A stretch of DNA of 64,000 nucleotides from an uncultured bacterium (GTDB lineage: Bacteria > Acidobacteriota > Aminicenantia > Aminicenantales > UBA4085): assembly GCA_937868205.1 (NCBI GenBank), contig CALMMC010000124.1:33046-97045 (forward strand). The letters run 5' to 3'. The position numbers and the translations under genes are program-made. Positions within the stretch are counted from its first letter, which is position 1; every line of letters starts with the position of its first letter. Shown here piece by piece: positions 3-55,663 of the stretch. The notes beneath the pieces were generated by a model. The model was not told the DNA's origin and did no database searches. It saw nothing but the letters and a program-made list of their open reading frames with translations.

Positions 3-482
3 GTGATCGAGGGCGATATCGAGACCGAGCGCGACGCCGAGCGGATCCGAGCCCGGGGAATCCCGGCGTGGCAGATCACCACGGGCGGCGCCTGCCATCT
101 CGAGGCGAAGATGATCGGCAAGGTTCTGCCGGACATCCCGACCGACATCGACTTCTTGTTCATCGAAAACGTCGGCAATCTCGTTTGCCCGGCCGGTTAC
201 GATCTTGGAGAACGGCTCCGCGTGGTTCTTCTTTCCGCCCCCGAGGGAGACGACAAGCCGAAAAAATATCCTCTGGCCTTCGTCACGGCCGATGTCCTCC
301 TCCTCTCCAAGTCCGACCTTCGCCCCTTCCTTCCTTTCGACGCGGAGAAGGCCCAGGCCGAAGCCTTGGCCCTCAATCCGAAGCTCCGGGTGTTCATCAT
401 CTCGGCCGTCAGCGGCCAGGGGCTGGACGATCTTGTCGACTTTCTTTTCCGCGCCCGGGAGGAGATCGCCTCCCGTGCATGA
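3..482 (+). CDS. hypB: Hydrogenase maturation nickel-incorporation GTPase HypB (5'-partial, C-terminal part only)
   Basis: ORF runs off the left edge; C-terminal HypB-like motifs (GGACHLEA..., IENVGNLVCPA, LLSKSDL) typical of the HypB/UreG GTPase family. Confidence 0.8.
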   Translation: MIEGDIETERDAERIRARGIPAWQITTGGACHLEAKMIGKVLPDIPTDIDFLFIENVGNLVCPAGYDLGERLRVVLLSAPEGDDKPKKYPLAFVTADVLLLSKSDLRPFLPFDAEKAQAEALALNPKLRVFIISAVSGQGLDDLVDFLFRAREEIASRA

Positions 483-840
483 GCTTTCTCTGGTGGCCTC
501 GATGTTCGAGACCCTCCTCGAACAAGCCCGCCTTCATAAGGCCCGCCGCATCACCGGAGTGAGGATCCAGGTCGGGGCCCTGGCCGGAGTGGTTCCCGAG
601 CTTCTCGAAAGCGCGTTCGACTCGTATAAGAAGGGGACGATCGCCGACGGAGCGGTTTTGACCATCGTCAAGCCGCCGTTTACCATCCGCTGCCGTGCCT
701 GCGGCGACGAAACCGTCCGGGAAGACTTTGCCCTGGCCTGCCCCGCCTGCGCCTCCACCGACCTCGAGATCGTTCACGGGATGGAGCTGGTCCTCGAAAA
801 AATCGAGATGGAGACGGACGACCCGCTTCCGGCGCCTTAG
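475..840 (+). CDS. hypA: Hydrogenase nickel insertion protein HypA
   Basis: GTG at 475 gives MHELSLVASMFETLLEQA..., matching the HypA N-terminal consensus (MHE.SL); two CxxC pairs (CRACGD...CPACAS) form a Zn ribbon; the start overlaps the hypB stop by 8 nt. Confidence 0.75.
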   Translation: MHELSLVASMFETLLEQARLHKARRITGVRIQVGALAGVVPELLESAFDSYKKGTIADGAVLTIVKPPFTIRCRACGDETVREDFALACPACASTDLEIVHGMELVLEKIEMETDDPLPAP

Positions 841-912: not shown

Positions 913-2961
913 TCAGCGCAGATACCCAAGCGATCTCAGCGTTTCCCGCGTTTTTTCATCGGCCGTCGGGCCGGGGGGTTCGGGTGAAAAATGCGGGATA
1001 TGAAGGCCCGCCCGCCAATGCTCGAGAAGACGCTCGAGCCGCGCCCCCTGGGGCGAGGAACGGGGATCCAAGGGGATTTCCTCTCTGGGATCCGCGGCCA
1101 GGTTATAAAGAAAGGATCGTCCGTCCGAGCGGGAGACCAGCTTCCAGGAATCCGTCTGGATCGCCTTCTGGCTGAGGCAGAAGGCGGAGGCATCCGCGCC
1201 GGGCAGCTCGGCAAGCGCCCCGAGCTCGGAGAGGGGAAGTTCGTATTCAGAAACGGCGGCTTCCTCCTCCGGGGCGATTCCCGCCGTCGGGCCGGCGTCC
1301 GGAAGAAGCCCGAAAGCGCTGGGCCAGTTGTCCGCCGGCGAGACGCCGGCGAGCTTCAAAACAGTCGGGAAGATCGATCCCGTCGACACGACGCCCGCGT
1401 ACCGCTTGTTTTTCCCGAAAACCCTCGGATACCTCACGATCAAGGGAACGCGGAGAAGGGTCTGGTGGATGGAGAACGAATGATTCAACAAGCCGCCGTG
1501 CTCGCCGAGGTTCTCCCCGTGATCGGAGGTAATGATCACGACGGTCTCCTCGAGCAAATCCCTCTCCCGAAACATCGCGATCAGGCGCTCCAAGCAGGAA
1601 TCCAGGAAAGCAAGCTCGCCGTCGTACAGCTCGGCCAGCCGGCCGTAATCGGCCGGCCTCATCAGGGTCGGGAACGCGATCAGCCTCCAGACCTCCGGAT
1701 AGCAAGCGTCGGTCATCAGCTTGCGGACGGGAGGAGAAGGCCGATTCTTCAGGAAGCGTCGGCGATACGCCGGAGGCGGATTATAGGGAAGATGGGGCGG
1801 CATGTAGTTGACGAAAATGAAAAACGGCCGGTTCTTGTCCCGCCGGTTTTGCGAATCGAGCCACCGGGCGATCCAAGGCTGCGTCTCGGCGGCCGCCCGG
1901 TCGGACCGCTTTTTTCGGGGCGATCCCAAGGCCGCGCCCAGCCCCTTTAGGATTTTCAGGTTCTCGACGGGATCCAGGCCTCTTGCATCCCACAGCCCGG
2001 AGAGCCGGAACATTTCATAGAAGCGGTCGAATCCCTGGTCGAAGTGAAACAAAGAGGACACATTCGGATTGGAGGAAAAAGCGGCCGTGGAATAGCCGGC
2101 GCTCCTCAAGAGTTCGGCCATGGTTTCCAATTCCGGACGGAGCGTGCGATGCTCGAAGGTCGCTTGATGAACCTCGGCGTACTGTCCGGTGAAAAGGGAA
2201 GCGTGGGCCGGAACCGTCCAGGGGCTGGGAGAAACCGCCCGCTCATAAACGGCGCTTTCGGCCGCCAGCCGGCGGAGAAACGGCATCGTTTCCCGCTCCC
2301 CTTCCCTTAAGGAAACATGATCCGCCCTGGCCGTATCCATCACGATGAGCAGAACGGACGGGGATCCGGCCGGAGGAGCGGGTCGGCCCGCGGGGGCGCC
2401 GCCGCCGGCATCAATTTTCCCGGCGCGGGTTCCTCCTCTGTCCAGGGCGATGATTATTAGGACGAGACCGAGGCCGGCAAAACCGGCGATCCGTAAAAAA
2501 CGCGTCCGCCTGCCGGGAGGTTGTCTCCAGGTCGCGATCCCGGCGGCCGAGAGAACGAAGGCCGTGGCCGCGACTCCGGCCGCCAGCCCCGCGAAATCCT
2601 TCGCCCCTGACACGAGGATGGCCGTCCGGCCGGCCAGGAGGCCCGCCGCCGAAACGAAAAGAACGGTCAAAACAAAATCAAAAAGAGCCTTCTTGCAAAA
2701 AGAAATCACGGTCGTTTTCTGCCGGGCGGGCGCGTCTCCGCCGGCCTCGGGAAAAACGGCGCCGACGGCGGCCGTCCCCAGTCCTCCGATCATTCCCCAC
2801 AGGGAAAGGGAGATAAGGAACGCCGCCAATGATGATCCGGCCAGGCCGCCGCCGGATTGGGCGACGGCGAAGAGCGCGTCGACGAGCCCGGCCGCCAAGC
2901 CGGCCGCGAACCCCGTCCGGAGCCCCCCCCAAACTGTTCCTTTATTCACCGCTCCTCCCAA
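913..2961 (-). CDS. Membrane-anchored sulfatase-like hydrolase/transferase (alkaline-phosphatase superfamily; LtaS/EptA-like architecture)
   Basis: Hydrophobic N-terminal ~180 aa followed by IVMDTARADH, SPSPWTVPAHASLFTG and TSDHGENLGEHG motifs characteristic of the sulfatase domain; no Cys/Ser-x-P-x-R signature, so not a classical arylsulfatase. Confidence 0.65.
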   Translation of the reverse strand: MGGAVNKGTVWGGLRTGFAAGLAAGLVDALFAVAQSGGGLAGSSLAAFLISLSLWGMIGGLGTAAVGAVFPEAGGDAPARQKTTVISFCKKALFDFVLTVLFVSAAGLLAGRTAILVSGAKDFAGLAAGVAATAFVLSAAGIATWRQPPGRRTRFLRIAGFAGLGLVLIIIALDRGGTRAGKIDAGGGAPAGRPAPPAGSPSVLLIVMDTARADHVSLREGERETMPFLRRLAAESAVYERAVSPSPWTVPAHASLFTGQYAEVHQATFEHRTLRPELETMAELLRSAGYSTAAFSSNPNVSSLFHFDQGFDRFYEMFRLSGLWDARGLDPVENLKILKGLGAALGSPRKKRSDRAAAETQPWIARWLDSQNRRDKNRPFFIFVNYMPPHLPYNPPPAYRRRFLKNRPSPPVRKLMTDACYPEVWRLIAFPTLMRPADYGRLAELYDGELAFLDSCLERLIAMFRERDLLEETVVIITSDHGENLGEHGGLLNHSFSIHQTLLRVPLIVRYPRVFGKNKRYAGVVSTGSIFPTVLKLAGVSPADNWPSAFGLLPDAGPTAGIAPEEEAAVSEYELPLSELGALAELPGADASAFCLSQKAIQTDSWKLVSRSDGRSFLYNLAADPREEIPLDPRSSPQGARLERLLEHWRAGLHIPHFSPEPPGPTADEKTRETLRSLGYLR

Positions 2962-3004: not shown

Positions 3005-3766
3005 TCAGGAAATTTCCCCGGTCAAGTAGGCTTTCATCCGGGGATCCTTCGGCTCGGCAAAGACCTCGGCCGCCGGGCCGTGCTCGACCAGCTCCCCCAG
3101 GTACATGAAAACGATATAATCCGCGATCCGCCGGGCTTGGCGGAGAATATGGGTCACGACGATGACCGTATAATCGGTTTTCAGGTCGATCAACCGCTGC
3201 TCGACGGTGCGGCTGGATTGCGGGTCAAGGGCGGAGGTGGGCTCGTCGCCCAGGATGATCTCCGGTTCGACGGCCAGGCCGCGGGCCAGGCACAGCCGCT
3301 GCTGCTGACCGACGGACAGCCGGGAGGCGGGCTCATGAAGACGGGTTTTCACCTCGTCCCAGAGCCCGGCGGCCGCAAGCTGGCGCTCGACAATCTGCCG
3401 CAGCTTCGCTTTCTCCCGAACGCCGTGGATCCGCGGACCATAGGCGATGTTGTCGAAAATCGACATCGGCAGAACCTGCGGTTTCTGGGACAACAGCCCC
3501 ATTTTCTTCCGGATCCGCGTCACCTCGATCTTCGGATCGTAAATGTTTTCCCCGTCGACCAGGACCTGACCCTCGACCTTCACGCCATCCACTTTGTCCA
3601 AAAGCCGGTTGAGGGTTTTAAGCAAGGTCGTCTTGCCGCAGCCCGAGGGGCCGATGATGGCCGTGACCCGGTGATCAGGGAGATCCACCGAGACGTCCTT
3701 AAGGACTTTCTGCCGGCCGAAGGTCACCGTCAGGTTCTTGATGGAAATATGCGTCTTGGCGTTCAT
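3005..3766 (-). CDS. pstB: Phosphate ABC transporter ATP-binding protein PstB
   Basis: Walker A GPSGCGKTT, ABC signature LSVGQQQRL, Walker B ILGDEPTSALD, and the PstB-typical C-terminus. Confidence 0.95.
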   Translation of the reverse strand: MNAKTHISIKNLTVTFGRQKVLKDVSVDLPDHRVTAIIGPSGCGKTTLLKTLNRLLDKVDGVKVEGQVLVDGENIYDPKIEVTRIRKKMGLLSQKPQVLPMSIFDNIAYGPRIHGVREKAKLRQIVERQLAAAGLWDEVKTRLHEPASRLSVGQQQRLCLARGLAVEPEIILGDEPTSALDPQSSRTVEQRLIDLKTDYTVIVVTHILRQARRIADYIVFMYLGELVEHGPAAEVFAEPKDPRMKAYLTGEIS

Positions 3767-3779
3767 GGCAATCCTTCGG

Positions 3780-4640
3780 TCAAATGGCGGAGTTTTTTCT
3801 GAATTTCCGGCTGTACCACCGGGAGAGAAGGCTGATGACGAGAATGATGATCGTCAGGATCGCGGCCGACGCATAAGCCCGCTCCTGGACCTCCGGGTAG
3901 GGCGTGCCGAGCTGGAAGAAAATCGCCAGCGGAAGCGTCGCCGCCGGCTGGAGGAGCGCCCCGGGGACGCGGTCGCTGAAACCGGCGGTGTACAAGACCG
4001 AGGCGGCGTCGCCGATGCCGCGGCCGAAGGCGATCAAAATCGCGGTGATGATGCCGGGAAGGCACTGACGGACGATAACGTGGACGGCCGTTTCAAGCTT
4101 CGTCGCCCCCAGGGAGGCCGAAGCGTCCTGGAGCGAGGAGGGGACGAGCCGGACGACCTCGTCCATCGCCCGGGCCATGATCGGAAGCTCCAGGAGGGCC
4201 ACGGCGATGATGCCCGCCAGGAGCGACGTCCGCAGGCCGACCATCATCATCAGGATGAAGCCGAAGGCCCCGTAGACGATGGAGGGGATGCCCCAAAGGA
4301 CGTCCAGGGAGAAGCGGACGAAGACGGCAAACCGCGATTTCCGCCGCTTGTAGAGATTAATGTACAGGACGATCGGCAGGCTGAACAGGAGAGCCAGGAG
4401 GGTGGCCCCGCCGGCCAGCTCCAGGGACCCAACGATGGCGTTGAGAATGCCGCCCTCTTTTCCCAGGTAGTACCCGCCCTTGGGCGTCTGAGTGATCATG
4501 GCCAGGTTCATGGCCGGGAATCCCTTGACGATGACCGTAGCGATGATGAGGAGAAGGCTTCCGATGACGATCACGGTCGAGCCGATCATCAACACCTTGA
4601 AGATCGATTCCTCCAGTTTCCGCCGCCGGAAGCCCATCAT
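3780..4640 (-). CDS. pstA: Phosphate ABC transporter permease PstA
   Basis: Multi-TM permease with an ABC transporter inner-membrane motif region; sits between pstB and pstC; ATGA overlap with pstC. Confidence 0.9.
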   Translation of the reverse strand: MMGFRRRKLEESIFKVLMIGSTVIVIGSLLLIIATVIVKGFPAMNLAMITQTPKGGYYLGKEGGILNAIVGSLELAGGATLLALLFSLPIVLYINLYKRRKSRFAVFVRFSLDVLWGIPSIVYGAFGFILMMMVGLRTSLLAGIIAVALLELPIMARAMDEVVRLVPSSLQDASASLGATKLETAVHVIVRQCLPGIITAILIAFGRGIGDAASVLYTAGFSDRVPGALLQPAATLPLAIFFQLGTPYPEVQERAYASAAILTIIILVISLLSRWYSRKFRKNSAI

Positions 4641-5524
4641 TCCGCCTTTTGCTCGGCCCGGATCAGGACCACGCGGGCGCCGATGTTGAACACAAGGACG
4701 ATCAGGAGAAGGACGAAGGCGGCCAGCATCAGAGCTCCGTCGTACAGGGGAATGGACATCATTTCCCCGTAATTATTGGCCAGAAGAGCCGGCAGGGGAT
4801 AGGCGCTGTCGAAGACGGATTTCGGGATGATGGGCGTGTTGCCGACGACCATGAGCACGGCCATCGTTTCGCCGAAGGCCCGGGAAAATCCGAGGGCCAC
4901 GGAGGCGATGATCCCGGCCAGCCCCTTGCGTAAAACGACGTGCTTGACCGTCTCCCATTTCGTCGCCCCCAGCGAGAGGGAGGCGTCGCGGAGGGATTGA
5001 GGCACCGAGGCGAAGACCTCCAAGGAGACATGGATGATCGTCGGAAAGACCATGATGGCCAGGACGATCGCTCCGGCCAGCACCGAGTACCCGGTGGAAT
5101 ACGCCCCGAACGCCGGAGCGATTTTCGCCACAAAGGGGACGATCATCAGGACGCCCCAGACGCCGAAAACAACCGAGGGGATGCCGGAAAGGAGGTCGAC
5201 GATGGGCTTGATGGTCTCCCGAATCCGCCGCGGCGCGTATTCGGACAGGTAAATCGCGCTCAGCAGGGAAACCGGGACGGCGATGGCCATGGCCGCCAGC
5301 GTCACCCAGACCGTCCCCATGAGGAACGGGTACAAGCCGAATTCGCCCTTCAAGGGGAACCAGGACGAACCGAAGAGAAGATCGGAAAAAGAATGAAGGG
5401 CAAGAATGCTCCGCGACCGGGAGTACAGCCCGAACAGCATCAAAAAGACGAGCGCCCCCGGCAGGATGGTGACGAGAAACATCAGCCGCCGGGCGGCAAG
5501 CTCTTTAAACAGCCGTTTGACCAT
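4637..5524 (-). CDS. pstC: Phosphate ABC transporter permease PstC
   Basis: Multi-TM permease, paralogous to PstA; conserved pstSCAB order. Confidence 0.9.
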   Translation of the reverse strand: MVKRLFKELAARRLMFLVTILPGALVFLMLFGLYSRSRSILALHSFSDLLFGSSWFPLKGEFGLYPFLMGTVWVTLAAMAIAVPVSLLSAIYLSEYAPRRIRETIKPIVDLLSGIPSVVFGVWGVLMIVPFVAKIAPAFGAYSTGYSVLAGAIVLAIMVFPTIIHVSLEVFASVPQSLRDASLSLGATKWETVKHVVLRKGLAGIIASVALGFSRAFGETMAVLMVVGNTPIIPKSVFDSAYPLPALLANNYGEMMSIPLYDGALMLAAFVLLLIVLVFNIGARVVLIRAEQKAE

Positions 5525-5583: not shown

Positions 5584-6534
5584 TTATTTATCGAGAAGGG
5601 CGAGTCCCGCCTTGAGCTTGTCCTCGCTCAGCCGGATATAACCGGTTTCGGGGACGTATTTTTGCCCTTCTCCGAGGATCCACCGAAGGAAGGCGGCCGC
5701 CGCCGGCTTGGCCGGCACGCCCTTGGAAACCAGGTAAAGGTCCCGGGCGGGGGGAGAGGGATACTTGTTTTCGCCGATGGCCTTCGTCAAGTCATCGCGC
5801 GTCCCGTAGAACCGCTCGACCGGATCGATCATGCCGTTGCCGTCGAGATCGATGGGCACGGCCACTAGGCCGGCGATCGGGGCCAGCGTTTTCGGGTCAT
5901 AAGCGAAATTGACGTTGTTGAACCCGATGCCGAGGGGATCCCGGCGGACGGCGTCGGCTAAGCCGGGATCGCCGTAGACGGCCACGCCGCCCAAGTCTTC
6001 TTGGCGCTTGTCAAGAAACAAGGCCCAGGTTTCGGCCGCGCCACAGGCGTCCGAGCGAGTGAAGACATGAATCGGCGCCGGCGCCTTGCCGTCCAGGACG
6101 TCGCCCCAGACGGTCGCCGACTTCGTAATCCAAATGTCGATGAACGCCTGGCGGGTCAGCCCTTTCCGCAGGATTTCGGGGAGATAGGGATTCTTGGAGT
6201 TGATCATGGGAACGACGGCGTCCTTGGTGACGGCGAACGGCAGAGCGCCCTTCTCCATCTCCACGGGGTGAACGTCGCGCGAGACCATGCCGAAATCGAC
6301 CATGTCGGCGATCACATCGGCGATCCCCTTGCCGGCGCCGCCGGCCTGGACATCGATCCGCACCCGGGGATGCAATATCTGAAATTCCTCGGCCCACTTG
6401 ACGACCATGGGATAAAGAGCCCAGGCGCCGGAAATCGAGACCTGGCCTTCCAGGACGGGGGCTTGAGCCGGGCCGGCGGCAAAGCCGCCCAGGACCGAGA
6501 CGGCCAGGAGAACCGCGATCATCAGTTTTTTCAT
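5584..6534 (-). CDS. pstS: Periplasmic phosphate-binding protein PstS
   Basis: Signal peptide MKKLMIAVLLAVSVLGGFAAGPAQA followed by a PBP-fold protein; first gene of the pst operon. Confidence 0.85.
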   Translation of the reverse strand: MKKLMIAVLLAVSVLGGFAAGPAQAPVLEGQVSISGAWALYPMVVKWAEEFQILHPRVRIDVQAGGAGKGIADVIADMVDFGMVSRDVHPVEMEKGALPFAVTKDAVVPMINSKNPYLPEILRKGLTRQAFIDIWITKSATVWGDVLDGKAPAPIHVFTRSDACGAAETWALFLDKRQEDLGGVAVYGDPGLADAVRRDPLGIGFNNVNFAYDPKTLAPIAGLVAVPIDLDGNGMIDPVERFYGTRDDLTKAIGENKYPSPPARDLYLVSKGVPAKPAAAAFLRWILGEGQKYVPETGYIRLSEDKLKAGLALLDK

Positions 6535-6552: not shown

Positions 6553-7542
6553 TCAGAATCCGGCCTGAAATTGAACCAAGAGGGCTTTATTCACCGTCCC
6601 CCCCAGCTCGTTTCTCAGGTATTCATAATTAACCTGAAGCTTCGTTTTGCCGGAAATCATCCAATTCAAACCGGCGGTATAAAGGTTGGTTCGGTCATCG
6701 TCCAAAGCCGTGTTCTTGTCGTACGCATCCACCTTGGCGACGATCTGCAGCTGCTTGGGAAGAACAAACCAGCCGGCTTGGACGAACCATCCCCGGCGGT
6801 CCATCTCGCCGTCGGCCGCCCAGATCATCTCCCCTTTCAGCGACACGTCCTCGAAAGAGACGCCGGCGTGGAGCCCGGTCCGATCCCGGCGGATGAGCGG
6901 CGCTCCGGCCGCGGCGTCGGCTTTTCCCTTGTAGAGGGACGCGCCGATCGTGAGAAAGTCAAATGGCTTCACCCCCACCCGGCCGGCGAAATCCTTCGCG
7001 TCGTTCGTATCGGTCTTGTTGGCTCCGGCGCCGTTGAAGAGCCCTAGGCTGTAATCAAAAACGGAGACTTGTCCGGTCAGCATGGCGCCCACGTCGCGGC
7101 CCATCGTGCCGACGTCGCGGCCCGGGGCCAGCTTGCTGACGGGTTGGGAAAAATTAATCGTATCCAAGTCGGCCGAGGACGTGTCATTTTCCGCGCCGAA
7201 AGGAACCCGGAATTGGCCGAAGCGGAGAGCCGCAGACTCGGCGAAAACCACGTCCACCATGGCATCGACAAGGATGGGATTTCGGACGGCATCGACCGTG
7301 AACTTGGCCTTGATATTCTTCATGAGATCGGCGGACAGGCTGAAGCGCGAACGGCGGACGCTCAAGGCGTCGACGCCTTGGTCCTGCAGAGCGCCGAGGA
7401 CTTGGGTGAAACCCGAAAGCTTGAGGGTTTTCCCCGCCGTCACCGATGGGGGCGGCGTTTTTTCCTCGGCGAAAGCCGCCGGGATCAGGGCAAGGACCGC
7501 GATCAGGAGCCCGGCCGTCTTCTTCCATTTCGACATGATCAC
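6553..7542 (-). CDS. Outer-membrane porin, probably phosphate-selective porin O/P (OprP-like)
   Basis: Signal peptide, alternating beta-strand pattern, C-terminal aromatic residue (…FQAGF); 18 nt upstream of pstS on the same strand; GGGAGG Shine-Dalgarno 6 nt before the ATG. Confidence 0.55.
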   Translation of the reverse strand: MIMSKWKKTAGLLIAVLALIPAAFAEEKTPPPSVTAGKTLKLSGFTQVLGALQDQGVDALSVRRSRFSLSADLMKNIKAKFTVDAVRNPILVDAMVDVVFAESAALRFGQFRVPFGAENDTSSADLDTINFSQPVSKLAPGRDVGTMGRDVGAMLTGQVSVFDYSLGLFNGAGANKTDTNDAKDFAGRVGVKPFDFLTIGASLYKGKADAAAGAPLIRRDRTGLHAGVSFEDVSLKGEMIWAADGEMDRRGWFVQAGWFVLPKQLQIVAKVDAYDKNTALDDDRTNLYTAGLNWMISGKTKLQVNYEYLRNELGGTVNKALLVQFQAGF

Positions 7543-7554
7543 CTCCCGGTATTT

Positions 7555-7586
7555 AGTTGATATAGTCTATTGTTAATATCGACTAT
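7555..7586. promoter_or_regulatory. Inverted repeat TAGTTGATATAG-n8-TAATATCGACTA in the AT-rich leader of the porin-pst operon; candidate Rrf2 operator and/or promoter element
   Basis: 10 of 12 positions match between the arms. The 8-mer TTAGTTGA recurs exactly at 8081-8088 on the other side of the Rrf2 gene. Confidence 0.3.
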
Positions 7587-7599
7587 TCCTAAAAAAATT

Positions 7600-8067
7600 T
7601 TATCCCTTATCCGGCGTCTTTTGATTTCCGTTTTCATTATTGGCCCTCATCGCTTTTCGCGTCATTTCTGCGACATCGGCAAAGGAAGTGCTTTCCAGGA
7701 TTTCGGCGATCGCGTCCCGGTTTCTCTTCCAAAGCCAGCGGAGGCCGCACGATTTTTCCCGTGGACAGACTTCGCGGGCGGTGACGCTGACGCAGTCGAT
7801 CGGGGCGAGGGGACCATCCATGACGCGGATGATCTCCGCCACGGAGATCTCTTCGGGCGGCTTGGAGAGCATATATCCGCCGTTGGGCCCCTTCCGGCTG
7901 CGCAGGTATCCGGCCCTTTTGATTTGGAGGAGGATTTGCTCAAGGAAACGTTCCGGAATGTCTTGGACCCTGGAAATGTCTCGGATGTGAAGAGGCGGTC
8001 CGCCGTAATGCAACGTCAGCTCGAGCATCGCCCGGCTCGCATACTCGCCTTTCGTCGACAGTCTCAA
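7600..8067 (-). CDS. Rrf2-family transcriptional regulator (IscR/NsrR-like, probably Fe-S cluster binding)
   Basis: N-terminal wHTH (LSTKGEYASRAMLELT...IRDISRVQDIPERFLEQIL) and three C-terminal Cys (CVSVTAREVCPREKSC) as in cluster-binding Rrf2 proteins. TTG start with an AGGA Shine-Dalgarno. Confidence 0.8.
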   Translation of the reverse strand: MRLSTKGEYASRAMLELTLHYGGPPLHIRDISRVQDIPERFLEQILLQIKRAGYLRSRKGPNGGYMLSKPPEEISVAEIIRVMDGPLAPIDCVSVTAREVCPREKSCGLRWLWKRNRDAIAEILESTSFADVAEMTRKAMRANNENGNQKTPDKG

Positions 8068-8080
8068 AAGAACTATCCTA

Positions 8081-8096
8081 TTAGTTGACTATACCA
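8081..8096. promoter_or_regulatory. Second copy of the TTAGTTGA-containing motif, overlapping a candidate extended -10 (TGgTATAGT on the minus strand) of the Rrf2 gene
   Basis: Exact 8-mer shared with 7554-7561. It lies 14-29 nt upstream of the Rrf2 TTG start in the divergent region shared with the sensor-kinase operon. Confidence 0.3.
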
Positions 8097-8145
8097 ATCG
8101 GCCATCTGATTTATCATTTCCCGGGCCTTCTGTCAAGTTCATTTA

Positions 8146-8154
8146 TGATAAAAT
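8146..8154 (+). promoter_or_regulatory. Candidate extended -10 promoter element TGaTAAAAT for the kinase operon
   Basis: TGnTAnAAT match 17 nt upstream of the kinase ATG. Confidence 0.25.
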
Positions 8155-8170
8155 AACTGCGGCGGAAAAG

Positions 8171-10120
8171 ATGCCTTTCCGGTTTGTCGATCTCCCTCTC
8201 AGGCGAAAAATGATCCTCGCCATTCTCGCCATCGTTCTCTTCGGAGGGATTGTTTTCGGCATCCTCGGCCTGCGACTCGAACACCAGACGATCATGTCCC
8301 TGGCGGAAAACCGGATCCACCACGATATGGACTCCGCCCGGACCATTTATTCCTTTTACTTGGACAATCTGCTGACGGCCGTGACCCTGACGGCCGAATC
8401 GGAGCTCTTGCGTCTCCCCCGCTCCGCCCAGCCGAACGCCGAACTGGATTTCCATCTGGCTCGGGCCGCGGAAGCGGGACGTTTTGATTTTCTATCGTTC
8501 GCGGCCGCCGACGGAAGACGGATCGCTCTCTCCGATCCGGCCGTTCCGGCCGGCGGATTCCGGGACCGGGATTCTTTTTTCTCCCGGGTCCTCGAGGGAA
8601 AGCGGCTCGCCGCGACGCGGCTTCTCCCCCTGGATTCCCTCCGCCGGGAAAGCACCCGGTTCGGAGAATCCGCGGCCGGGGACATCCTCGTCCTTGTCGC
8701 GGCGGCGCCCGTCCGCGGCCCGGAAGGAAGGATCATCGGCGTCCTGGAGGGCGGACGGCGGATCAACGGCGACAACGAGATCGTCGACCGGGTCAAAGCC
8801 GCGATTTTCGATCCCGAAAAACGCGGCGGCCGGGACACGGGCGTCGTCACGATCCACCAAGGCGACATCCGGGCATCGACAACCCTCAAAAACCCCCAGG
8901 GGAGCCGGTTGAACGGAACGCGGGCGGATCCCCGCTTCCGGCAGGAGGCGCTCGAACGAAGGAAAGCTTGGGCCGGGCGGGCCGTCATTCTCGGGGAACG
9001 GTACATCAGCGCTTCCGAGCCCCTGGCCGATTACGACGGGACCGTCGTCGGAATGCTGAGCATCGGTCTTTTAGAACGGCCGTTTCTCGCTCTCCGCAAC
9101 CGGGTGATCACCCAAAACGCCGCCTGGGCCGCGGCCACGGCGGCCGTTCTGCTGATCCTCCTTTCCCTCATGGCGACGCGTCTCGTCCGGCCGTTGGGAG
9201 ACTTGGCCGCGGCCGCGTCCCGGATCGCCCAAGGCGACCTGAACCTGAAAGTCCCGGTCGGCGGCCGCGACGAAATCGGAGAGCTCGGCGGGGCGTTCAA
9301 CCGAATGACCGCCGAGCTTCGCAAGGCCAAGGAAAATCTTCTCCAATGGACGTGGACTCTTGAAAGCCGGGTCGCCGACCGAACCCACGCCCTCCGCAAC
9401 ATCCAGGAATCCATGGCCCGATCGGAAAAAATGGCCTCCCTCGGGCAACTCGCCGCCGGCATCGCCCACGAAATCAACAATCCCCTGACGACCATCCTCA
9501 TCAACGCCCATCTTCTGCTGGAAAAAGCTCGGCCGGACGATCCGGCCGCGGCCGCTCTCCGCCTGATCGCCGAGGAAACCGAGCGCTGCGGCCGGATCGT
9601 CAAGGGGCTTCTCGAATACTCCCGGCGGACGCCGCCCGAAAAATCCGCCCTCGACGTCAACGCCGTCGTGGAACGCACCATCGGCCTGCTTTCCGGCCAG
9701 GCCTGGGCCCGCAACGTCCGTCTCTCCCATCATTTGGACCGGACGCTCCCTCCGCTCTTTCTCGACAGAGCGAAAATCCAACAGGTGTTCTGGAACCTGA
9801 TCCTCAACGCCTGCGAGGCGATGCCCTCGGGAGGAACGATCGATGTTTCCAGCCGCCGCTCGGCCGACGGCCGGTCGATCGAGGTCGTATTCGCCGATTC
9901 GGGGCCGGGAATCCCGGAGGAAAACCTCGACCGGATTTTCGACCCCTTTTTCACGACCAAATCCTCGGGAACGGGCTTGGGGCTGGCCGTCGCCGCCAGG
10001 CTCGTCGAGCAGCACGGCGGAACCATCTCCGCCCGAAACGGGGCTGGCCGCGGCGCGGTCTTTACGATACAATGGCCGCTGGCGGACACGGAAACCGGGG
10101 ACAGAGGAATTGGACCATGA
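8171..10120 (+). CDS. Sensor histidine kinase (N-terminal TM, periplasmic sensor, HAMP, HisKA, HATPase)
   Basis: H-box HEINNPLTTI, N-box, and G-boxes DSGPGIP / GTGLGLAV; coiled-coil HAMP-like segment with GDLNLKVPVGGRDEIGELGGAFNRM. Confidence 0.9.
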   Translation: MPFRFVDLPLRRKMILAILAIVLFGGIVFGILGLRLEHQTIMSLAENRIHHDMDSARTIYSFYLDNLLTAVTLTAESELLRLPRSAQPNAELDFHLARAAEAGRFDFLSFAAADGRRIALSDPAVPAGGFRDRDSFFSRVLEGKRLAATRLLPLDSLRRESTRFGESAAGDILVLVAAAPVRGPEGRIIGVLEGGRRINGDNEIVDRVKAAIFDPEKRGGRDTGVVTIHQGDIRASTTLKNPQGSRLNGTRADPRFRQEALERRKAWAGRAVILGERYISASEPLADYDGTVVGMLSIGLLERPFLALRNRVITQNAAWAAATAAVLLILLSLMATRLVRPLGDLAAAASRIAQGDLNLKVPVGGRDEIGELGGAFNRMTAELRKAKENLLQWTWTLESRVADRTHALRNIQESMARSEKMASLGQLAAGIAHEINNPLTTILINAHLLLEKARPDDPAAAALRLIAEETERCGRIVKGLLEYSRRTPPEKSALDVNAVVERTIGLLSGQAWARNVRLSHHLDRTLPPLFLDRAKIQQVFWNLILNACEAMPSGGTIDVSSRRSADGRSIEVVFADSGPGIPEENLDRIFDPFFTTKSSGTGLGLAVAARLVEQHGGTISARNGAGRGAVFTIQWPLADTETGDRGIGP

Positions 10121-10503
10121 CCGAGACAAAACGGAGAATCTTGATCATCGACGATGAACGCTCCGTTGTCCAAAGCATCGCCCTGGCCTTGGCCGGGGAA
10201 GGCGTCGAAATTGAGACCGTCCTTTCCGGAGAGGACGCGCTCATCCGGACGGCCGCCGTCCGCTACGATCTTATTATCTGCGATTTGATGATGCCCGGTC
10301 TGAGCGGCCTCGACTTGTTGAAGTCCCTCCGGACATACCGGCCCACCACCCCTGTTCTGATGATCACCGGCTATCCGACGATCAAAACGGCCCAGGAATC
10401 CTTGAAAATGGGCGCCTTCGCCTTCATCACCAAGCCGTTCACGCCGGCGGAAATCCGGAGCGCCGCGGCCCGGGCCCTCGCCCAAGCGGATTCGAAGGAA
10501 TGA
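10117..10503 (+). CDS. Single-domain response regulator (CheY-like receiver)
   Basis: ILIIDDE...DLIICDLMMPGLSGLDLL...ITKPF receiver motifs; ATG overlaps the kinase stop (ATGA). Confidence 0.85.
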   Translation: MTETKRRILIIDDERSVVQSIALALAGEGVEIETVLSGEDALIRTAAVRYDLIICDLMMPGLSGLDLLKSLRTYRPTTPVLMITGYPTIKTAQESLKMGAFAFITKPFTPAEIRSAAARALAQADSKE

Positions 10504-47641: not shown

Positions 47642-48592
47642 TCAAGGCGTTCGGCGGCGATCCGCGCGGGCGGAAAGAACCTCGCGCAGCTTGAGCAGGA
47701 CGTAAGGAGCGGCGTAAAGGCCGCGCGAAAGGATCTCGACGGCCCGCTTCGGAAGCCGGCCCCGCTGCTCGAGGCGCTTGACGGCCGCGTCGGCCCGATG
47801 GCACATCCGGTAGCCCAACCTCGTCGCGCCATCGATTCTTTCCGCCTCCGGACGCGCCCGGTCCCGGATGAACTCCTCCCAAATCTGGGCCTTGGCTTGG
47901 AGTTGGACGCGGGCCCGCCGGGCCGCGTTCCCCCCCCGGATCCGGACCCGGGTCAGGACTTCGGGAACCGCCGCCAGCGGATATCGGGCCGCCAGGTTGA
48001 TCCAGAAAAGACTGTCTTGGCCGTAGCGCATTTTTTCCGAAAAGCGCAGATTCGGGCTTTCTCTCAGGATCTCGGCCCGGATCATGACGCAGGGCGTGGC
48101 GATGGGGGCCGATCGAAGGCATCGGAGAAAGACATCCCCGCGGCAGGCCGAGACATCGACCGTTTTCTCGGCCCGGCGAGGATTTCCGCCGCGGAAAAGC
48201 GTATAACCGGTATGCGACCACGCCGCGCCCGTCGCCGTCATGAGGCCGAGTTGTTTCTCGATTTTCCGTTCCTCCCAGACATCATCCGAATCGAGGAACG
48301 CGATGAACTCCCCGGCGGAGTTCTCGATTCCGAGATTTCTCGCTGAGCCGGGACCGCCGTTGTCCTTGTGGAAATAGCGGATTTTTCCGGCGAAGCGGCC
48401 AAGGACGCCTCCCACATCCTCCGGCGAGCCGTCATTGACGAGGATGATCTCCGTGTTTTCATATGTCTGGCGGACGGCGCTTCCGACCGCTTCCTCCAGC
48501 CAGCCCGCCCCGGCGTAAAAAGGGATGATGACGCTGACTTTAGGCGTCAACCGCCCGTGAATCTGATCGAATCCCTTAAAAAGTCCAAGCAT
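47642..48592 (-). CDS. Glycosyltransferase family 2
   Basis: VSVIIPFYAG...VNDGSPED...LDSDD (DxD) GT-A motifs. Confidence 0.8.
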   Translation of the reverse strand: MLGLFKGFDQIHGRLTPKVSVIIPFYAGAGWLEEAVGSAVRQTYENTEIILVNDGSPEDVGGVLGRFAGKIRYFHKDNGGPGSARNLGIENSAGEFIAFLDSDDVWEERKIEKQLGLMTATGAAWSHTGYTLFRGGNPRRAEKTVDVSACRGDVFLRCLRSAPIATPCVMIRAEILRESPNLRFSEKMRYGQDSLFWINLAARYPLAAVPEVLTRVRIRGGNAARRARVQLQAKAQIWEEFIRDRARPEAERIDGATRLGYRMCHRADAAVKRLEQRGRLPKRAVEILSRGLYAAPYVLLKLREVLSARADRRRTP

Positions 48593-48659
48593 TTCTTATC
48601 CGGCCAAGCCATCGCATCGGCCGATTTGATATTTTTTCGGGAGACCCTATCAAAAGAAA

Positions 48660-49524
48660 TCAGCGCTTCTTCGCCAAAACGATATTAATCATCCCGGAAT
48701 TGGGAACAATCGACGAGGCCACACGATAAAGAGGATTCATCACATGTCGAAGAATCGACGCGCCTTTCGGCAGAGAGATATGCGTATCCGCAGAGCGTGT
48801 CATTAAAACATTAAATCCATAGTGATGGACAATATCGATTGTCTCGGCCATCGTGTACTCCCGCACATGACCGAAACCGTGGACCCAGATTCCGTCCCCA
48901 TGTGAAGACGCCGACTTTTCCTCTTTGTACACTCGATACACCGGATCGAGCACCGCCTTCCCCATAATCGCTTTGATGCGTTTGCTGAGCATCGCGATAT
49001 TTTGGAAGAGAAAAGACCAGAATCCCTCCCGCTCTAAGAATTTTTTTTATTTCCGAAAACACTTTTCCCGGGCCTGTATTCAAATGTTCAAAAACCTCCG
49101 TAAAAACGACCATGTCCATCTGACCGGGAGAAAACGGGATTTCATCTTTTAAAAGGTCACACACGCAATGCTCTATTCGATTTTTATGACATCGATCCGC
49201 TAGGAGCGAAGTGAGATCAATCGTGAACATCCGTACATTTGGAAAACACTTTCGATAAACAAACGTCATCGGCGAAGTACCAATATCAAGAATCGCCGAT
49301 TCCTTCCCTTTGGGCAATATCCTCAGGCCTTTTTGGATCATGAGGACATTCTGCCGGACAGATTCCTTATGGTTTATGAAATATTGTTTTTCGACGTTTC
49401 GGCTTTGTCCCAAACAGTTGTCGTCCGAAGAAAGGGATATTTCCATAATCACTTTTTCAAAAGAGGCCTTGAAATCCGGATCATCTTCGCGTGAATGCCG
49501 CCATTTAATACTACGGCGCGTCAC
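48660..49524 (-). pseudogene. Class I SAM-dependent methyltransferase interrupted by a single-base frameshift (extra A in a run at 49000-49003)
   Basis: N-part (ILDIGTSPM motif I ... FSEIKKILRAGGILVFSLP) in one frame; the protein-like continuation NIAMLSKRIK...WVHGFGHVREYTMAETIDIVHHYGFNVL lies in the +1 frame (ORF 48660..48992); the original-frame continuation is G/R-rich nonsense. Low-GC region. Confidence 0.6.
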
Positions 49525-49526
49525 GT

Positions 49527-50654
49527 TTATTTCATTCCTTTTTCTTCAAGGATTCTCACTAATTGTTTTGCGTGCCGTTCCTTTTTATCGCATAAATAAG
49601 CGATGATCGTCTTTGTTCCTTTTTCCGCGATGCTGGATTTATTATCGTAGTCCTGCAAAACACTCCGGATCGTTTTTGCAATATGCTCGGGATTTTTTCG
49701 CAAGATCCGGTAGCAATTATACCCATCTTTCATCAAATACGGGATCGTTCCGACGAACGTCGTGAGGATCGGAGTTCCGGCGATCATGGCTTCATACAGG
49801 ACCCGCGGAAAGCCCTCATGGTGCGTCGGGAGAACGAAGAGGTCGGCTTGCCGGTACATTCTTTTCAAGAAATCCCGATCGGAGACAACCCCGTGAAGGC
49901 GGATCCATCCGCCAAGGTCCTCCTCCGCGATGATTTGTTTGATCTTCGCCGCATCCGCTCCGTCGCCGACCATGTCGAGGCTGAAGTCGACTTCCCCCCT
50001 GTCCTTCAGGATTTTCACCGCTTGGACGAGATCATAGGAGCCTTTCGGCTCTTCGACGCGGCCTACATAGAGGAGGCGATAATGATCCCGTCGCTCATAC
50101 GTGCGGCCGGAAACGATATCCTTCTCCCCCTCTTCCATCATCGGACGTATTGTTTGCGCCTCGCCTCCTCCTTTCCTGATGATTTCAGTGAATTGAGGCG
50201 AGATTGTCAAAGAAATCATCGCTTTCCGAAATAATATTTTTGAGAGGCGAGACCGCATCCCTTTTTCCCCCCGGATATAAAAACCAAATGGTTTTCTCCA
50301 TAGGACGGCAAAGATGGCCATAAAGAGATTGATATTTCCGGGATAATATAGATAGAGAAAATCATATTTTCGGACGATTTTAAATCCAACAATCAACCCT
50401 TGGATATAGGCGGCGTATTTTATTTTCCCCCTCGATATCGATATGATTTTAATATCGCGGTCATTGATTTTGTAATCAAAGATACTGTTTTTTTCCTGGT
50501 TTTTAATACGAAATTGGAAAAATCCTACCTGTTCAACAAGATGGGACAATTCAACAAGGAATCGGCCGTCACTTCGAAAGATAAACAAATCGTTGCCTTT
50601 TTCAAGCATGACATTATTTCTAACAAGAAGGATTTTCATTTTTTTCCATGCCAT
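49527..50654 (-). CDS. Glycosyltransferase family 4 (low-GC, horizontally acquired)
   Basis: EGFPRVLYEAMIAGTPI (E-x7-E motif); about 45% GC against about 66% background. Confidence 0.8.
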   Translation of the reverse strand: MAWKKMKILLVRNNVMLEKGNDLFIFRSDGRFLVELSHLVEQVGFFQFRIKNQEKNSIFDYKINDRDIKIISISRGKIKYAAYIQGLIVGFKIVRKYDFLYLYYPGNINLFMAIFAVLWRKPFGFYIRGEKGMRSRLSKILFRKAMISLTISPQFTEIIRKGGGEAQTIRPMMEEGEKDIVSGRTYERRDHYRLLYVGRVEEPKGSYDLVQAVKILKDRGEVDFSLDMVGDGADAAKIKQIIAEEDLGGWIRLHGVVSDRDFLKRMYRQADLFVLPTHHEGFPRVLYEAMIAGTPILTTFVGTIPYLMKDGYNCYRILRKNPEHIAKTIRSVLQDYDNKSSIAEKGTKTIIAYLCDKKERHAKQLVRILEEKGMK

Positions 50655-50660
50655 TCCCGC

Positions 50661-52118
50661 TTACGCGCCGCTCCCCGCGAACGGGCTTCCTTCCGCCGCC
50701 GGTTTCCGAACGAATTTTTCAAACAACCAGACGATCGCCGCCGGCCAGAGGATGCCGCGCAAGGCGGTGAAGTAGCCCGAGCGGGGATAATAAATGGAAA
50801 ACGACAGGGAAACGACGTAAGCGATGAGGTAATAGAGATGGACCTTGTCGATCGCCCCCCTCTGGAATTTCATGTTGGCATAGCCGAACAGCATCATCAT
50901 CACGAGGACGCCCGCCGCTCCGAACGAAATATAAACGTCGGCGATGATCGTATTGCCGAGGCCGGCGCCACGAGCCCCCCCCTCGTACTCATGATACGTC
51001 AAAAGCTGCCCGGAGGAAATGTCCTGGAGATCGACATGAAAAAGCGTAACATACACGCTCTGCAAGCCGGGGACGACGCTGAGGATTTGAGTCAAGAATG
51101 TCCGCCCGAGCGTGCGCTCGTTATTTTGAACATAGCTCACGGCGAGATAGAGATTGCGGTTGTTGACGATCATGTCCCGCCCGAAATCAAAAACCGATTC
51201 CGGCACGAATCGTTCCGCTCCCCGCTTATAGTATGCGATGATAGTGCTTTCGTCTTCCCGCGTGTCGTCATAAACCGTTCTCGCCTGCGAGACGAACATC
51301 ATGAGATACATCCCGGCCGCAATGAGGATCGCGAAGACCATCAGCCTCAGGGGACGGAGGAACGTCGTGAACAAGGCGCCGTAGATCAGGACGATTTGAA
51401 TCGCCGGCCCGCGGTCTCCGACATAGAGGAAAACAAAAACGGCGAGGACCGACAGCCCGACGAGACGCGGCCGGAAGACCCGAAACAAGCTTCTCCCCCG
51501 TCCGTCATCGTGAGGCAGCCGACCGACGAAGGAGACCATGAGGGCCAGCGGGAAGATCCCTTGAAATGCGATCAAGAGATACTCCGAGGCCGCGCTGTAG
51601 GCGTTGAAAACGCCCCGGGCGATGTTGTCGCGGGAAAAGAAGACGAAGAGCGCGAACAGGGCCAAGGAAAGGACAAACAACGGCGTTTCGAGCGGTCGGT
51701 ACCGCTCCGCGTCCCAGCCGCCCGGCGGAACGTTCTTGATTTTTCCGCCGAACACCGCGCCCAGGATGTACGCGTTCATGCCGAGGAGGGCCAGGGCCGT
51801 CGAAACGGTGATGAGAGAGGGATCGAATCCCCTCTCGAAGACCTTGAAGAGAAACGGCCGGTTTGGATAAACGAAGACGGGATAGACGAAATGGACGAGA
51901 AAAAATCCGATGATGAAGAGGACATGAAAATTAAAATAGTTTCCGAAAAGACTCTTTTTGATGAACCAGGCCGTTGAAGCCAAGAACACCGCCAGCACGG
52001 CCGCGCAATATCCCAGGGAATAATCGTCCGGGGCGAACGCGTACAGGGCGAAGCTGAGGACGAGGAAGAAGAACGCGACGGCCAGAGTCAGGCGCTGAGC
52101 GGAAGGACGGGCGGTCAT
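50661..52118 (-). CDS. wzy: O-antigen/oligosaccharide repeat-unit polymerase Wzy
   Basis: 485 aa, about 11 TM helices, no soluble domains; sits between a GT gene and wzx as in Wzx/Wzy-dependent loci. Confidence 0.65.
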   Translation of the reverse strand: MTARPSAQRLTLAVAFFFLVLSFALYAFAPDDYSLGYCAAVLAVFLASTAWFIKKSLFGNYFNFHVLFIIGFFLVHFVYPVFVYPNRPFLFKVFERGFDPSLITVSTALALLGMNAYILGAVFGGKIKNVPPGGWDAERYRPLETPLFVLSLALFALFVFFSRDNIARGVFNAYSAASEYLLIAFQGIFPLALMVSFVGRLPHDDGRGRSLFRVFRPRLVGLSVLAVFVFLYVGDRGPAIQIVLIYGALFTTFLRPLRLMVFAILIAAGMYLMMFVSQARTVYDDTREDESTIIAYYKRGAERFVPESVFDFGRDMIVNNRNLYLAVSYVQNNERTLGRTFLTQILSVVPGLQSVYVTLFHVDLQDISSGQLLTYHEYEGGARGAGLGNTIIADVYISFGAAGVLVMMMLFGYANMKFQRGAIDKVHLYYLIAYVVSLSFSIYYPRSGYFTALRGILWPAAIVWLFEKFVRKPAAEGSPFAGSGA

Positions 52119-52823
52119 TTATCTCGCGTATTCAAAATGAACGAAATCCGGCTCGTAATATTTTTGAACCGCGTTCTTCATTTCCCCGGTATACCGTTTT
52201 TCCTTCGCCGCCGGGCGGAACGACAGGCGAAAGACGATTCCGGGGTGTTTTTTGATGATTCTCCAGCCCCGAACAGCATGAGTTCCCGGGCTCAAACCGC
52301 TCGAATCGTTGAGATTTTGAAGCCGCGCGCCGCCGAGGTTCAACCGCCGGGCGACTTGGGCGAAATCCTCGTTGATCGTCTCCAGCTTCCCGACGTAATC
52401 AACGAGCCGAGTCCCCGATTCATCATACACATAGGACGACATGGGCTTGATGAAGTAATGGAGACTCGGATCGCCGAACAGACGAGGAAGCTCGTCTAGA
52501 ATGAACGTTTCAAACGAGACTAGACGGGCGTATCCCAGGTACTTGTAAAAAGAATAAACCCGGTCATAGGGATTCCGGACGAACGCGAATTTAAAGTAGG
52601 CGTCGAACGTTTCTTGGTTGACATATCCATATTCCACATATTCCCGGGCCGTCAGGTGGGACAGGATCCCGGGCCCCCGATCTCCCCGGTTGACGATCCC
52701 CAGAAGAAGCGATTCCCGGCGGGCGAAGTCCAGGCCGAGCGCATCGAGAAAAACCTGCTCAATGCTGATGCCCGCCACTTTCGGGATGTGAACAAAAATG
52801 CATTTGTATTCATGAGACAACAT
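52119..52823 (-). CDS. Sulfotransferase (Sulfotransfer_2 / carbohydrate sulfotransferase-like)
   Basis: N-terminal PAPS 5'-phosphate-binding region (IFVHIPKVAGIS) and FVRNPYDRVYS 3'-phosphate-binding motif. Confidence 0.7.
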   Translation of the reverse strand: MLSHEYKCIFVHIPKVAGISIEQVFLDALGLDFARRESLLLGIVNRGDRGPGILSHLTAREYVEYGYVNQETFDAYFKFAFVRNPYDRVYSFYKYLGYARLVSFETFILDELPRLFGDPSLHYFIKPMSSYVYDESGTRLVDYVGKLETINEDFAQVARRLNLGGARLQNLNDSSGLSPGTHAVRGWRIIKKHPGIVFRLSFRPAAKEKRYTGEMKNAVQKYYEPDFVHFEYAR

Positions 52824-52850
52824 CGAAACGCCGTAACCTCCGTCCCGGAG

Positions 52851-54413: not shown

Positions 54414-54500
54414 AAGGCGAGACTTGAAAGCGCGGGTCGTCAGAGAACGGCGTCAGCCTCCCTTTCGTTCTTCATCCCGCTGTTTTCAACGTTCAAATCG

Positions 54501-55610: not shown

Positions 55611-55663
55611 CAAGCCGTCCTTTACATCAGATTTTTTTATCGATTACGAGCTTGGAAAAAGGG

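Follow-up and report, generated by a model that had tools for sequence, protein, structure and literature searches.

An Rrf2-family regulator gene and its conserved palindromes at the porin-pstSCAB locus of Aminicenantes bacteria

As far as we know, nearly all descriptions of high-affinity phosphate uptake make it an output of PhoR, PhoB, and PhoU. What, then, controls a pst operon that has none of these genes beside it? The question is raised by a stretch of 64,000 nucleotides (hereafter, the window) from an uncultured bacterium of the Aminicenantales (contig CALMMC010000124.1, positions 33,046 to 97,045), in which a gene for an Rrf2-family regulator, rrf2, lies between a porin-pstSCAB gene cluster and a divergent histidine kinase operon. 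That gene order had been described in an initial annotation made from the sequence letters, and it agrees with the domain calls (PF02082, Porin_O_P, the pst families, and the histidine kinase and receiver domains). So does the annotation's remark that phoU and phoBR do not adjoin pstSCAB, as neither the neighborhood of pst nor any scanned open reading frame (ORF) of the window yielded a PhoU, PhoB, or PhoR domain. By family membership, the transporter is a predicted phosphate-specific PstSCAB system: PstC and PstA score above the cut-offs of the phosphate-specific NCBIfam equivalogs, PstB falls just under its own, and PstS is divergent. We propose, with a probability of roughly 0.7, that rrf2, the porin gene, and pstSCAB are under the control of an autoregulated, probably iron-sulfur (Fe-S)-dependent repressor, the predicted product of rrf2. 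Phosphate uptake would then probably be controlled here by a type of regulator not earlier linked to it.

Conserved palindromes on both sides of rrf2

Genome and metagenome scans returned 92 further Aminicenantes loci whose Rrf2 proteins are 65-99% identical to that of the window, and synteny was judged on the 86 loci with enough downstream DNA. In 84 of these 86, a tauE, porin, or pstS gene comes directly after rrf2; the first gene encodes a porin or PstS in 69 loci and a TauE/SafE permease in 15, and the two remaining loci have something else. Wherever the sequence of a locus with the permease gene first reaches far enough (7 loci), that gene is in turn followed by a porin gene or pstSCAB. 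At the loci examined, phoU never follows pstB, and no isc or suf genes were found at ~90 loci or in the window. The divergent kinase/receiver pair is the upstream neighbor of rrf2 in 43 loci. Since the stop codon of rrf2 overlaps the start of the next gene in loci L014, L015, and L018, the genes form a single operon at least there. Metagenome assemblies from sewage, fermentation, and other sources also contain the same or a near-identical locus, as does the metagenome-assembled genome GCA_028749145.1.

The regions upstream of rrf2 in 83 non-redundant loci cannot be aligned, save for the promoter hexamers and one further block, the pseudo-palindrome aTAGTCkATTGAnwTAGTCGACTAwT, which stands right after a TTGACA/TAAAT promoter. 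This block, which we call operator O1, begins 3-4 nt past the -10 element (TG-n-TAAAT-like) and, in 71 of the 83 promoters, 26-28 nt from the end of the TTGAC hexamer. It is a dyad, TAGTCGA-N9-TCGACTA, of 25-27 bp with an 8-9-8 architecture, and its positions reach up to 2 bits, many of them invariant or nearly so, while the flanks carry 0.0-0.4 bits. A second copy, O2, occurs at a distance of 10-40 nt past the rrf2 stop codon in 65 non-redundant loci, usually oriented opposite to O1, so that the asymmetric ATTG of O1 recurs in O2 against the direction of transcription; it is missing where rrf2 abuts the next gene. In the window, O2 starts 11 nt past the rrf2 stop codon and ends 26 nt ahead of the porin ATG (Table 1).

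Both sites are highly specific to this locus. A position matrix was built from the orthologous sites, leaving out the window itself and its near-twin, L040. When the window was scanned with it, O2 and O1 came out on top (Table 1), followed by a single match of 10.5 bits that overlaps O2, and nothing else scored above 6.5 bits; the maximum over 20 shuffles of the window was 5.3 bits. The 189 matches of at least 14 bits that were found in 590 kb of related loci all lie either just upstream of rrf2 or just past its stop codon. The operators of Rrf2 proteins are pseudo-palindromes of ~23 bp (PMC9338935). Autoregulation through a dyad-symmetric site of ~23-27 bp at the regulator's own promoter is usual in this family, and the conserved, predicted operator O1 is such a site.

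An operator on each flank of rrf2 had already been proposed in the initial annotation, on the strength of an octamer, TTAGTTGA, that it had found twice. There are indeed exactly two copies in the window, the second at 8081-8088 as given; the first lies at 7553-7560, and not at 7554-7561. In shuffles of the whole window, 0.28 copies are expected and at least two occurred in 3 of 100. Both copies are, however, in AT-rich spacers (28% and 39% GC), for which a shuffle of the spacers alone is the fairer test. There, some common 8-mer was seen in 19.6% of composition-matched shuffles, and the shared octamer by itself is therefore no evidence of an operator. Nor did the inverted repeat that was to contain it, TAGTTGATATAG-n8-TAATATCGACTA, hold up, as only 9 of its 12 positions are complementary; a repeat finder reports another register, ATAGTCTAT-n7-ATCGACTAT at 7562-7586, and it is this register that is conserved in relatives. 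The copy at 8081-8088 is a degenerate right half-site of O1, where the consensus TCGACTAA reads TCAACTAA, with the G changed to A. The copy at 7553-7560 belongs only to the weak 10.5-bit match (7551-7577, minus strand), and it is kept as TCAACTAA only in the closest relatives, being elsewhere merely ATCAnnTAA-like. Because one copy is a half-site of O1 and the other lies outside the conserved O2, the two are not equivalent. The idea of an operator pair thus survives, by phylogenetic footprinting at ~90 loci, with a different motif; the same footprinting supplies the operator positions for the suggested autoregulation and control of porin-pst, with Rrf2 as the presumed binder. Matches to the pattern TAGTTGAYNTATA at 1805, 52615, and 58488 were dropped, as none scored above 0 bits with the orthologue-derived matrix.

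The annotation had itself allowed that the motif might be a generic promoter signature, and we consider it extremely unlikely that AT-rich promoter sequence or chance accounts for what is shared, even though the spacer shuffles point that way, the 7553-7560 copy overlaps a -10-like CTAAAT, and O1 of the window contains an extended -10-like TGGTATAGT. The matrix finds only two strong sites in 64 kb with ~50 genes and none at other promoters, and the positions are invariant across 83 divergent promoters. The promoter-scan match within O1 (ATGATA-18-TATAGT) is not conserved: position 2 of its hexamer is A in 38 sites and T in 37. For O1 and O2 the promoter explanation is hence largely refuted; for the 7553-7560 copy it may partly hold.

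Could the palindromes instead work at the RNA level, as hairpins of the 5' leader and the rrf2-porin spacer that affect mRNA stability, attenuation, or translation? With G-U pairs allowed, most O1 sequences permit pairing between inner positions 7-10 and 14-17. In the outer arms, however, pairs are lost and not compensated (a substitution on both sides occurs once in 83 sequences, and positions 6/18 are non-pairs in 52 of the 83), and O2, as an antisense copy of an asymmetric sequence, would turn the G-U pairs into C-A. Neither leader is predicted to fold better than its shuffles (z 0.33 and -0.88), and Rfam gave no match. On these grounds a protein-bound DNA site is favored, and a role as RNA structure seems to us highly improbable. 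Moreover, no run of T follows the hairpins on the transcript, and no terminator-like site was found within 7400-8300, which covers the rrf2-porin spacer.

Some smaller features lie close by. A run of ~5-7 T on the gene strand (7591-7597 in the window) separates the rrf2 stop codon from O2 in most loci that have O2; as no hairpin precedes it, it is no obvious terminator; it could serve as a bend or as an UP-like element. The window also has an 8-nt inverted repeat without mismatch, TTTATCAT / ATGATAAA, at 8110-8117 and 8145-8152. It corresponds to a pair of extended -10-like elements that face in opposite directions: that of rrf2 is TGATAAAT on the minus strand, and that of the kinase operon is TGATAAAAT (8146-8154) on the plus strand; an ATGATAgAAT-like element is also found upstream of the kinase gene in L007-L009. 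Inspection by eye revealed no Pho box in the form of 11-bp-phased CTGTCAT repeats, and the CTGTCAA at 8130-8136 is the reverse complement of the rrf2 -35 element.

The Rrf2 protein and its relatives

The 155-aa product of rrf2 passes the models of the Rrf2 superfamily, PF02082 (129.6 bits against a cut-off of 30, residues 3-134) and TIGR00738 (122.8 bits against 73.3). As the initial annotation had seen, it has three cysteines, and exactly three, at positions 92, 101, and 107; they are placed after the winged helix, as in the Fe-S-binding subgroup of the family. All three are invariant in an alignment of 14 orthologues, and so are E8 and R12. In ScNsrR, the cluster ligands are three cysteines and Asp8 from the other subunit, with Asp8 salt-bridged to Arg12 (PMC5411485), and the invariant Glu8-Arg12 of the window protein would, on paper, be the counterpart of that pair. 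Judging from these invariant residues, we give about an even chance to the proposal that an Fe-S cluster is the effector of the predicted repressor, which would make repression dependent on Fe-S or redox status. The closest solved structure, 4cic, was deposited as a BadM/Rrf2-family regulator and has Ser at all three aligned cysteine positions; we take it to be a Cys-to-Ser variant of Thermincola potens IscR.

It passes only these superfamily models, and falls short of the curated cut-offs for named members of the family by roughly twofold or more: IscR (TIGR02010, 94.4 bits against 207.55; NF008110, 75.3 against 275), CymR (NF047409, 104 against 195, which is the best named NCBIfam match), NsrR (NF008240, 42.5 against 182), and RirA. 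The name "cysteine metabolism repressor" that JGI gives to these Aminicenantes proteins is probably wrong, as the target here is a phosphate transporter, and not sulfur or cysteine genes.

Nevertheless, the protein might be a general Fe-S or sulfur regulator of the IscR/CymR type, for which pst is one of many targets or a mere neighbor, with phosphate status left to another sensor, such as an unlinked PhoBR/PhoU. In keeping with this, 4cic is the closest solved relative and CymR and IscR are the best named matches; the Rrf2 protein is unusually conserved (70-87% identity, compared with 34-75% for the porin); two outgroup Rrf2 genes, described below, stand beside sulfur-related genes; and the operator scans covered the window and related loci rather than whole genomes. 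Set against this are the wide shortfalls from the equivalog cut-offs, the absence of isc and suf genes at ~90 loci at which linkage to pst is near-universal, and the confinement of the operator to the flanks of rrf2 and pst in 64 kb plus 590 kb. We therefore regard a general regulator as possible, though rather unlikely.

The outgroup clusters are 50-60% identical to the window protein. In one of them (P0125; 51% identity, L124/L125), rrf2 adjoins cysE-iscS-iscU; in a second (P0124; 60% identity, L122/L123), it adjoins a Na/sulfate symporter gene and genes for two SBP_bac_11 binding proteins; and in a third (P0123), the neighbors are unrelated. The proteins of L122/L123 and L124/L125 share the C-x8-C-x5-C motif with that of the window. 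This suggests that the clade switches between oxyanion-uptake and Fe-S-assembly targets, and the pst-linked clade looks like an offshoot of IscR/CymR-like regulators with a newly acquired target.

A sister clade is found in Planctomycetota (Sedimentisphaerales, Phycisphaerae). Its Rrf2 protein has 133 aa, is 36-38% identical to that of the window, and lacks the three cysteines. It heads tauE operons (L028, L035, L127, L128) or pst operons (L033, L129), and often stands beside homologues of the Cache-kinase and receiver pair. Because the same set of genes recurs in two phyla, we argue that the linkage of rrf2 to pst is functional. The rrf2 promoter of this clade, TTGACA-N17-TATAAT, is directly followed by a different palindrome, GTCTATAGAC. 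The palindrome thus changes where Rrf2 has diverged, that is, it tracks the regulator, as autoregulation predicts.

The operons themselves vary. In L129 (7417-13176), the pst operon headed by Rrf2 is interrupted, its order being pstS, an extra ABC ATPase, a CobW-family GTPase, a PF04060 "FeS" protein, pstC, pstA, and pstB. The tauE insert of Aminicenantes encodes a 254-aa permease of the TauE/SafE family (PF01925) and is placed between rrf2/O2 and the porin or pst genes (L051, L057, L062, L064, L066, L069, L072, L076, L081, L088, L094, L100, L105, L110, L112); its product resembles that of the gene following the Cys-less Rrf2 gene in L028, L127, and L128.

A model for control of the operon

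We infer that Rrf2 is the protein that binds O1 and O2, that it acts as a repressor, and that a cluster conveys the signal. In this model, an Rrf2 dimer would bind both copies of the 25-27 bp pseudo-palindrome. O1 is placed directly past a promoter close to consensus (TTGACA, 16-17 nt, TG-n-TAAAT) and would cover the transcription start of rrf2, so that its occupation would shut off rrf2 and all genes reached by read-through, which amounts to autoregulation; repression of the whole rrf2-porin-pstSCAB unit through O1 is thus the probable outcome. O2, ahead of the porin gene, may block read-through or occlude a weak internal promoter, and so hold pst off more tightly than rrf2 itself; in loci where the rrf2 stop codon abuts the next gene and O2 is missing, O1 alone would control the operon. 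The Fe-S cluster would be ligated by Cys92, Cys101, and Cys107 together with Glu8 of the partner subunit, and its loss or modification would release the protein from DNA and derepress phosphate uptake. Candidate signals for such a cluster are oxygen, NO, iron, and redox state. By analogy with CymR, a mechanism that depends on a partner protein is a live alternative, with the kinase/receiver pair or PstB as candidate partners.

Several observations speak against this model or parts of it. Four bases of the operator are asymmetric and nearly fixed (A at -2, T8, and G10 in 83 of the 83 promoters, A11 in 80), and a symmetric dimer does not explain them. The left arm of O1 in the window is degenerate (TGGCC for TAGTC). 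No consistent sigma-70 promoter was found at O2, where the best hexamer pairs scatter in position and match at 7-10 of 12. Since the Cys-less clade also heads pst and tauE operons, the link to pst does not require an Fe-S cluster, and the signal may differ. Finally, with scans that covered the window and 590 kb of related loci, there may be a wider regulon, or a separate PhoBR/PhoU elsewhere in the genome.

The asymmetry could mean that another factor binds the conserved element, be it an unlinked regulator or a partner of the kinase/receiver pair, and that Rrf2 is merely co-transcribed with pst. The invariant ATTGA with A at -2, unexpected for a symmetric dimer, would fit such a factor, and so would the presence of the kinase/receiver pair next to rrf2 in two phyla. 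However, the size, the dyad symmetry, and the position at the regulator's own transcription start form the classic pattern of Rrf2 autoregulation (PMC9338935), the element becomes GTCTATAGAC together with the regulator in Planctomycetota, and the receiver protein has no DNA-binding domain. We consider another binder very unlikely, and keep autoregulation by Rrf2 as the preferred explanation.

A more far-reaching proposal is that, in Aminicenantia and in the Cys-less Planctomycetota clade alike, Rrf2 serves as the output in place of PhoB, is set by an Fe-S cluster or by a partner (kinase/receiver or PstB), and replaces PhoBR-PhoU altogether. We find this doubtful, and keep it in view because the set of rrf2, tauE, porin, pstSCAB, Cache-kinase, and receiver genes recurs in two phyla.

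The coordinates of the locus are collected in Table 1. Although the kinase and receiver genes (8171-10503) are conserved neighbors of rrf2, no operator of their own was found at them; beyond the pair, the plus strand encodes a methyltransferase and a UbiA prenyltransferase. On the other side, the gene at 913-2961 may be the last of the pst operon, and its product could be a putative phosphate-scavenging or lipid-remodeling enzyme that is co-expressed with pst. The remainder of the window holds hypA/hypB, topoisomerase I, and a large envelope-polysaccharide cluster. At its left edge (3-840, plus strand) are hypA and a partial hypB (CobW/HypB domain), both for hydrogenase maturation. Within the polysaccharide cluster, the GC content of ~48000-56000 drops to 46-56%, as against ~62-65% elsewhere; besides several ORFs with no Pfam match, this stretch holds genes for a sulfotransferase and a Wzz-like protein, and it looks like a horizontally exchanged cassette of the O-antigen type.

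Table 1. Positions of the operators, promoter elements, and genes discussed in the text (window numbering)
Feature	Position	Strand	Remarks
Operator O1, ATGGCCGATTGGTATAGTCAACTAATA	8079..8105	minus	26.7 bits; starts 3 nt past the -10; spans the predicted rrf2 transcription start
Operator O2, ATAGTCTATTGTTAATATCGACTATTC	7562..7588	plus	29.2 bits, best site in the window; antisense to the genes
First TTAGTTGA copy	7553..7560	plus	2 nt outside O2; gene strand reads TCAACTAAAT, overlapping -10-like CTAAAT
Predicted rrf2 -10, ATAAAT preceded by TG	8109..8114	minus	position inferred by reading the sequence
Predicted rrf2 -35, TTGACA	8131..8136	minus	TTGAC at fixed distance from the operator in 71/83
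rrf2	7600..8067	minus	155-aa Rrf2-family regulator, TTG start; PF02082 E 1.1e-37; Cys92, Cys101, Cys107, Glu8, Arg12 invariant in orthologues
Phosphate-selective porin gene (Porin_O_P family)	6553..7536	minus	327 aa counted from the ATG at 7536
pstS-like, periplasmic binding protein	5584..6534	minus	PstS is the best family; 95 bits against a cut-off of 206, below the curated cut-off
pstC, permease	4637..5524	minus	TIGR02138, 263.6 bits against 196.45
pstA, permease	3780..4640	minus	TIGR00974, 195.9 bits against 193.45
pstB, ATPase	3005..3766	minus	TIGR00972, 337.1 bits against 343.2 (6 bits short)
Membrane-anchored sulfatase / alkaline-phosphatase superfamily protein	913..2961	minus	682 aa, N-terminal membrane region; 43 nt past pstB
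Cache-HAMP histidine kinase	8171..10120	plus	divergent from rrf2
Receiver-only response regulator	10117..10503	plus	no DNA-binding domain

Comparison with known systems

How does this locus compare with systems already described? With IscR of T. potens and E. coli, the window protein shares the Rrf2 winged-helix fold, and its Cys92, Cys101, and Cys107 align with Ser92, Ser101, and Ser107 of the 4cic variant. As in IscR, the regulator gene is the first of its operon, and autoregulation, here predicted, runs through a pseudo-palindrome of ~25 bp. In contrast to IscR, it fails the IscR models, its operon is porin-pstSCAB with no isc or suf genes nearby, and it has no His three residues past the last Cys. 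The E. coli IscR type-1 consensus is ATASYYGACTRwwwYAGTCRRSTAT, with GACT...AGTC in its inner part; in the operator described here, it is the outer arms that carry AGTC...GACT.

CymR of Bacillus subtilis and Staphylococcus aureus is, apart from being the best named NCBIfam match, the second and third PDB match, and it too controls nutrient uptake systems, those for sulfur compounds. In the alignment, however, CymR lacks the three-Cys cluster site, and the target here is a phosphate transporter. The partner of CymR is CysK. That an Rrf2 regulator can need a partner protein to bind DNA has its precedent in CymR (PMC9338935). The NsrR and RsrR proteins of Streptomyces have in common with the window protein the three Cys and a carboxylate at residue 8 paired with Arg12 (Asp8 in ScNsrR, PMC5411485; Glu8 here), a small local regulon (a predicted one in the window) that includes their own gene, and a pseudo-palindromic operator of ~23 bp; they differ in the spacing of the cysteines (C-x5-C-x5-C rather than C-x8-C-x5-C), and no NO-detoxification genes are found at this locus.

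The canonical Pho regulon has the same output, a phosphate porin and PstSCAB behind a tightly controlled promoter. Unlike in that regulon, there is no phoU after pstB in the loci examined and no PhoB-type DNA-binding regulator nearby, the site is a dyad-symmetric 25-27-mer in place of 11-bp-phased direct repeats, and the presumed mode of control is repression and not activation.

A looser likeness, by type of gene, is to rrf1-rrf2 of Desulfovibrio vulgaris, which we take to be the founding member of the family, and to Dde_3717-3719 of D. alaskensis G20: in both, an Rrf2 gene stands beside one for a CheY-like response regulator, and in G20 also beside a histidine kinase gene. The genes of the G20 cluster (BadM/Rrf2, sensor kinase, and CheY-like) group with one another in the mutant-fitness table of a study of phosphate limitation, although the phenotypes in that table are not specific to phosphate and no linkage to pst is reported, so that it is a loose lead only (PMC5193443). 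Our literature search found no described link of Rrf2 to pst or phosphate uptake, and no description of such a link for the pst genes of Aminicenantes. There is nothing unusual for an Rrf2 protein in the fold, the dimer-type operator, or autoregulation; what is new with respect to the literature found is the target (a phosphate porin and PstSCAB without phoU or phoBR nearby), the sequence of the operator, and the conservation of this arrangement throughout the class. Control of phosphate uptake by Fe-S or redox state, or a replacement of PhoBR, is still a proposal.

With one protein and two 27-mers, the system is compact and open to tests in vitro, for which the organism need not be cultured; the operator matrix can be used for regulon prediction in metagenomes. 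As it stands, pst lies behind a three-Cys Rrf2 gene in an entire class of anaerobes that are abundant and uncultured and that come from sediments, groundwater, and sewage or digesters. If an Fe-S cluster is indeed the effector, phosphate acquisition in these bacteria would be tied to redox or iron status, which, to speculate further, would fit settings where the redox chemistry of iron governs the availability of phosphate.

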